DNA from: Eledone cirrhosa
Taxonomy: Eukaryota
Assembly: GCA_964016885.1 (NCBI GenBank)
Contig: OZ024759.1
Coordinates: 34,844,001 to 34,908,000, forward strand
Reading direction: 5' to 3'
DNA: 64,000 nucleotides
The translations under genes were made by a program, and so were the position numbers. The notes under the pieces were generated by a model, which was given only the letters and a program-made list of their open reading frames with translations, searched no databases and was not told the DNA's origin. How positions within the stretch are numbered: position 1 is the first letter of the stretch; each line of letters begins with the position of its first letter. Shown one piece after another: positions 1,551 to 1,592 of the stretch.

Positions 1551-1592
1551 TAACTTTTGAAAATCATGTAACTTGTGAAACCGGTAAAGTTG
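1551..1592 (+). ncRNA. Type-I hammerhead ribozyme variant (core UUGAAAA, U3-A8)
   Basis: TAACTT-TTGAAAA-TCA..TGT-GAAAC-CG-GTA-AAGTTG; palindromic ACCGGT stem III; predicted GUA cleavage after 1586. Confidence 0.7.

Follow-up and report, generated by a model that had tools for sequence, protein, structure and literature searches.

U3-A8 minimal hammerhead motifs in the 3′ terminal repeat of a Penelope-like element family

We analyzed a 64-kb stretch of DNA (the window), AT-rich and full of microsatellites, from a genome of 3.0 Gb. The motif at positions 1551-1592 of its plus strand most probably (at a probability of roughly 0.85) represents a minimal hammerhead of the 3′ repeat of a Penelope-like element (PLE), in a clade whose core carries U3-A8, and the copies in the window would be old, truncated stubs that are likely past cutting. 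By its sequence, the motif adds one more family to the U3-A8 subtype already known among PLE minimal hammerheads (min-HHRs), and it is off the consensus in stem II and in having no bulge. The swapped U-A core pair itself is not novel: natural U3-A8 covariation was reported by Perreault et al. in 2011 (PMC3088659), who also cite a study in which a U3-A8 variant was already active in vitro, and in 2014, Cervera and De la Pena described a Schistosoma U3-A8 PLE family with about 1,300 matches (PMC4209133).

Motif copies in the window

When both strands of the 64-kb window were scanned with relaxed hammerhead criteria, nine matches were returned, of which three have the UUGAAAA core, and these are the three copies predicted at 1551, 1463(-), and 26943(-). 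The letters of 1551-1592(+) read TAACTT TTGAAAA TCATGTAACTTGT GAA ACCGGT A AAGTTG, a minimal type I hammerhead motif with a U3-A8 core that we assign to family B. On this strand, 1551-1556 pairs with 1587-1592 to give stem I, the UUGAAAA core occupies 1557-1563, a weak stem II with U10.1·U11.1 spans 1564-1576, GAAA lies at 1577-1580, the palindrome ACCGGT of stem III at 1580-1585, and the GUA site at 1584-1586, where position 1586 is A17 and the predicted cut falls after A1586. The same core is found in the second copy, at 1504-1463(-), and in the third, at 26984-26943(-), which belongs to the family B sub-lineage with G-C in stem I and whose palindrome has decayed to ACTGGT. The window letters bear out the stem I sequences that had been given, TAACTT/AAGTTG at 1551 and TGACTT/AAGTCA at 26943. 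Features of PLE min-HHRs found here are the U3-A8 core variant UUGAAAA, GAAA, GUA as the NUH, a palindromic 15.2-16.2 region (ACCGGT), and, in the sister family copy L131, a location in the terminal repeats of an element with RT and GIY-YIG. The G10.1-C11.1 pair and stable stem II of the PLE min-HHR consensus are absent from the window family.

By family homology, the 1551 motif lies in a 5′-truncated 3′ terminal repeat (pLTR plus tail) of a PLE at 1500-1712(+), which is 80% identical to the family copy L020 and has its (AT)n end ∼125 nt downstream of where the cut is predicted; the 3′ end of the family reads ...ACTTTCGAAAAT(AT)n. The inverted 5′ arm of this insertion, at 1396-1513(-) and with a (TA)n border, carries the 1504-1463 copy. 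Both the 1551 and the 1463 copy therefore come from a single inverted insertion between (TA)n tracts, one per arm (91% identity over 115 nt), and the two are not independent. Another truncated insertion, at 26897-27161(-), likewise has an inverted arm; this arm, at about 27015-27161(+), starts just upstream of ACCGGT and reads AAGTCA. Because AAGTCA is present in both arms, the C in stem I of this insertion was inherited from the source element.

This arrangement bears on whether a window copy might be active in place, as a tandem dimer with its neighbor, which the original prediction implied. The core and palindrome are intact at both 1551 and 1463, but the neighbor is the inverted arm on the opposite strand, and the two fold back on each other. 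The motif at 1551 would be buried in read-through RNA because the near-perfect antisense arm is in the same RNA; folding of 1390-1660 predicts a fold-back structure of −144.7 kcal/mol that takes up 98% of 1551-1592 in base pairs. Family B copies have also diverged ∼9% from the column majority, compared with ∼5% in the younger family A, and we regard cutting in place as very unlikely.

Several other repeats were seen in the window. A short duplication with a period of 15 (1585-1618), directly 3′ of the motif, is private to the 1551 copy. Further perfect or near-perfect fold-back stubs, at 26700-26890 and 4596-4691, cause spurious Rfam miRNA matches, and a 21-bp minisatellite of ∼102 copies lies at 21652-23782. 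Six more hammerhead-like motifs have a CUGAUGA core, at 16191(+)/15950(-), 28275(+)/28039(-), 57814(+), and 15121(-); two pairs are inverted arms, so these canonical-core motifs probably have other PLE families as their source.

U3-A8 as a family state

As the original prediction held, U3-A8 extends beyond single copies. In an alignment of 64 rows (two duplicate loci were removed beforehand, two rows repeat copies of the first set, and two are from sister families), U3 and A8 were found in 61 rows and neither C3 nor G8 in any, so the family consensus is not CUGANGA; two of the three exceptions are misaligned junctions. U/A at positions 3/8 was present in 34 of the 35 rows picked by the motif region and in 27 of the 29 picked by upstream sequence. 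When position 8 was left free in the family B pattern, a hand count of 82 matches gave A in 78, T in 3, C in 1, and G in none.

We then counted exact pattern matches in the source genome. The pattern TTGANAAN{11,16}GAAACCGGTAAAG had 15,715 matches compared to 0 for its reversed control, most of them from sister family A, and the pattern of the window's own subfamily had 82 (control, 0). Family A, whose stem II (GCAG-AAGAA-CTGC) pairs perfectly, accounts for 11,820 exact motif matches. A C3-G8 version of the family's 3′ half had three matches (control, 1), all without the family's stem I and all damaged or junction copies. A further U3-A8 pattern yielded 8,599 matches (control, 488), with stems II that include GCCC/GGGC, GCTT/AAGC, GTAC/GTAC, GCAC/GTGC, and GGAG/CTCC; across families with differing stems, the core and GAAA are invariant. 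The total for U3-A8 exceeds 20,000 exact pattern matches and is about equal to that for canonical CUGANGA-plus-bulge motifs (16,499; control, 563), a rough comparison as the patterns differ. Taken together, the alignment and counts indicate that U3-A8 is a family state in this clade and no decay product of C3-G8.

Searches that require CUGANGA miss the family, as had been anticipated, and the Rfam hammerhead models miss the motif too. With the Rfam models, no hammerhead was found at E ≤ 10 in window positions 1520-1625 or in L131 positions 6960-7070, and the best 150 of 446 matches over the whole window were just repeat-driven and sub-threshold. For annotation, CUGANGA-only and Rfam searches would overlook roughly half of this genome's PLE hammerheads.

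Covariation in the stems

In 14 hand-picked U3-A8 representatives, which are related and in nine of which the search pattern itself required the closing G-C, so that this pair is no evidence, 87.5% of the stem II cells were paired, with 12 double-sided changes. None of 500 shuffles scored as high, and slid registers reached at most 55%. The further U3-A8 families likewise covary in stem II, between families. Stem II is 4 bp long and starts with U10.1·U11.1 in 45 of 49 family B copies and with G-C in 63 of 71 family A copies; in a tree, midpoint-rooted and with weak backbone support, family A branches from inside family C, giving the series U·U, G·U, G-C. The palindromic stem III that was predicted, ACCGGT, is present at 1551 and exact in 10 of 16 representatives.

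Stem I, too, is paired and covaries, with few independent events. By hand count, the fifth pair of stem I among the 100 matches listed of 420 was U-A in 59, A-U in 33, G-C in 2, a wobble in 3, and a mismatch in 3. Stem I states were parsed by script (in the alignment, the 3′ halves are misaligned), and the G-C double change was present in seven copies, with seven copies having the G only and seven the C only (n = 420, Fisher p ∼2e-8). The compensatory change in stem I that had been proposed is therefore real as a double change, yet it reads as one inherited event in a small sub-lineage and not as repeated selection, since several G-C copies have other diagnostic changes in common and the C is found in both arms of the 26943 insertion. 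The proposal that positions 3 and 8 were replaced as a covarying pair holds between families only; within this clade they are invariant.

These data bear on two other possible origins of the motif: a chance resemblance within AT-rich repeats, or separate decay of the two positions, C>T giving U3 and G>A giving A8. The lack of an Rfam match and single-sequence folding z-scores near 0 for two of the three window copies would fit such an origin, but the copies number in the thousands, the family has no C3-G8 ancestors, and the stems are compensated across families. The cross-family covariation already refutes this explanation, and we give it next to no credence.

Host element

A near-complete RT-EN copy of family A (L131:2112-7200) has, in order, an inverted motif, the 5′ motif, an RT frame, a CGRSNCGTC linker, GIY-YIG, a ∼1.4-kb 3′ UTR of internal tandem duplications, and the 3′ motif, the 5′ and 3′ motifs being 4.25 kb apart. 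This is the standard PLE layout, inverted 5′ arm included (PMC8557442). The GIY-YIG match (E 7e-8) is above the Pfam cut-off, and the RT match (RVT_1, E 1.3e-4) is weak and below it. The linker between RT and the C-terminal GIY-YIG is of the form CxxxxCxxC and, as a sequence feature alone, resembles the CX2-5CxxC linker that PMC8557442 describes in the same place in the Neptune/Nematis PLE clade. The window repeat has ∼68% identity with the L131 3′ repeat, and the link from the window sequence to the ORF runs via family homology alone. A decayed homologous endonuclease was found upstream of the motif and on the same strand at 4 of 29 family B loci, and one locus of the GCCC/GGGC family likewise has such an endonuclease.

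An earlier view of families A and B as non-autonomous, with no ORF near the motif, was dropped after ORFs were found beyond the 1.4-kb 3′ UTR. A GIY-YIG ORF by the family A motif in L091 was rejected as the gene of that family, as it runs antisense to the motif, with (TA)n in between, and comes from another PLE. GIY-YIG fragments of a different PLE, with a CNLCLNEK-type C-terminus, are inserted beside family A copies at L091:4030-4428(-) and L131:471-830(+).

By analogy with published PLE hammerheads, the transcript of the source element would hold the motif twice, in its 5′ and 3′ repeats. The two copies could pair via ACCGGU and swap strands, a slow cut after GUA would free the element RNA, and the RT and GIY-YIG endonuclease would copy this RNA into (TA)n tracts. 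Such copying may often yield a 5′ truncation and an inverted arm, as in the window insertions.

Folding and activity

We folded the motifs with a nearest-neighbor model, which disregards tertiary contacts. For the three window copies, the predictions had a slipped stem II that hides G12 (probability of G12 being paired, 0.98 to 1.00) and a stem I lengthened by a U3-A17 pair (0.84 to 0.89), and the active-like fold was 5 to 9 kcal/mol above the minimum. In family A, G12 was free (probability of being paired, 0.01 to 0.03), and the U3-A17 pair had a probability of 0.66 in the better-paired variant and 0.07 in the other. Cofolding gave an intermolecular ACCGGU helix in all except the decayed 26984 copy. 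Three points make activity of these copies doubtful: stem II slips, U3 may pair with A17, and the inverted arms fold back on each other. On these predictions, the window copies, as old truncated stubs, are probably inert. The U·U in stem II, the A17-U3 pairing, and the inverted arms were all missing from the original prediction, whose picture was to that extent incomplete.

The same predictions would be expected if the motif of families B and C had been catalytically dead already in the master elements and had been kept as a structural or dimerization signal, with PLEs spreading without cutting. Both the extension of stem I by U3-A17 and the covering of G12-A13 by the slipped stem II agree with this, as does the energy of the active-like fold, and the predicted U3-A17 pair is analogous to the C3-G17 pair described as a presumed inactive trap of minimal hammerheads (PMC3884650). 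Naiad PLEs, moreover, are described as spreading without canonical hammerheads (PMC8557442), and copy starts do not pile up at the cut site: 5′ ends fell at the predicted cut in 1 of 73 copies with the family A query and in 0 of 101 with the family B query, the loci being mostly picked for a whole motif. However, stem I pairing has been kept through three states, the core and GAAA have stayed constant while the stems differ, and G12 is free in family A. In addition, U10.1-U11.1 is reported as the best-tolerated mismatch and as a natural variant (PMC3088659), and tertiary contacts lie outside the folding model. On balance, we consider a motif that was already dead in the master elements somewhat unlikely, and we favor a PLE min-HHR of the U3-A8 clade of which the window holds decayed stubs. 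Weighing against this reading, element copies retain ∼125 nt beyond the predicted cut, so the RNA that was copied had either escaped cutting at the 3′ motif or been religated.

Relation to known hammerheads

The closest system for comparison is the U3-A8 min-HHRs of Cercyon elements in Schistosoma mansoni. As described in PMC4209133, these are alike in their type I topology within the pLTR, their U3-A8 core, their palindromic stem III for dimer cleavage, their mostly solo or truncated copies, and their opposite-strand pairs 100 to 700 bp apart. Fig. S3 of that paper gives the Sm(4) core as UUGAAAAA, and the natural U3-A8 cores in print (PMC3088659, PMC4209133) include UUGAAAA in a Schistosoma PLE; an extra nucleotide between A9 and 10.1, usual in PLE min-HHRs, is absent in two rows of the figure. 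The paper also sets out the dimer model for PLE min-HHRs and their low activity in vitro, and the palindromic stem III is in print both there and in PMC3088659. Compared with the Cercyon motifs as described, the window family lacks the bulged nucleotide between A9 and 10.1, and has a 4-bp stem II starting with U·U (G-C in family A), a longer palindrome (ACCGGU), and A17 as the cleavage-site base, which is complementary to U3; the host element here has a CxxxxCxxC linker. The core variants of Perreault et al. share the U3-A8 covariation and the U10.1-U11.1 start of stem II, but appear in that report (PMC3088659) as separate, scattered cases, whereas the present motif combines the two, and they have become fixed across multi-copy families.

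A literature search among mostly open-access papers found nothing on U3 with A17 or on PLE hammerheads of this host. Lunse, Weinberg, and Breaker have reportedly described dimer-cleaving PLE hammerhead variants with a diminished palindromic stem III; going by that description alone, the diminished palindromic stem III, the PLE association, and the dimer model are alike. The fresh angle appears to be the combination of U3 with A17, together with a stem II that, from one related family to the next, starts with U·U, G·U, or G-C.

With U3-A8 held constant, these related families vary in how strong stem II is and in whether position 17 is A or C, and the variants are natural constructs for asking whether retrotransposition needs PLE hammerhead cleavage. 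One tentative idea, which we hold to be improbable, is that the U3-A8 radiation, the U3-A17 pair of its most successful branch as a mirror of the C3-G17 trap, and the stem II series from U·U through G·U to G-C amount to a natural titration of ribozyme activity. If cutting is modulated or abolished by the trap and by the slippage of stem II, the families would show how much of this activity a Penelope element requires; the family that folds best is also the one with the largest expansion.

The bulged nucleotide after A9 is absent in the U3-A8 representatives (L137-L166) and present in the canonical families of this genome. We speculate that the U3-A8 core could have arisen when G8 was lost and the bulged A moved into its place, together with a C3U change. 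At L141-L146 (G000:C1:6519951-6521556), at least six U3-A8 hammerheads with C17 and a near-palindromic stem III are arranged in tandem with a 316-bp period, which by analogy may be a retrozyme-like array suited to dimer cleavage.
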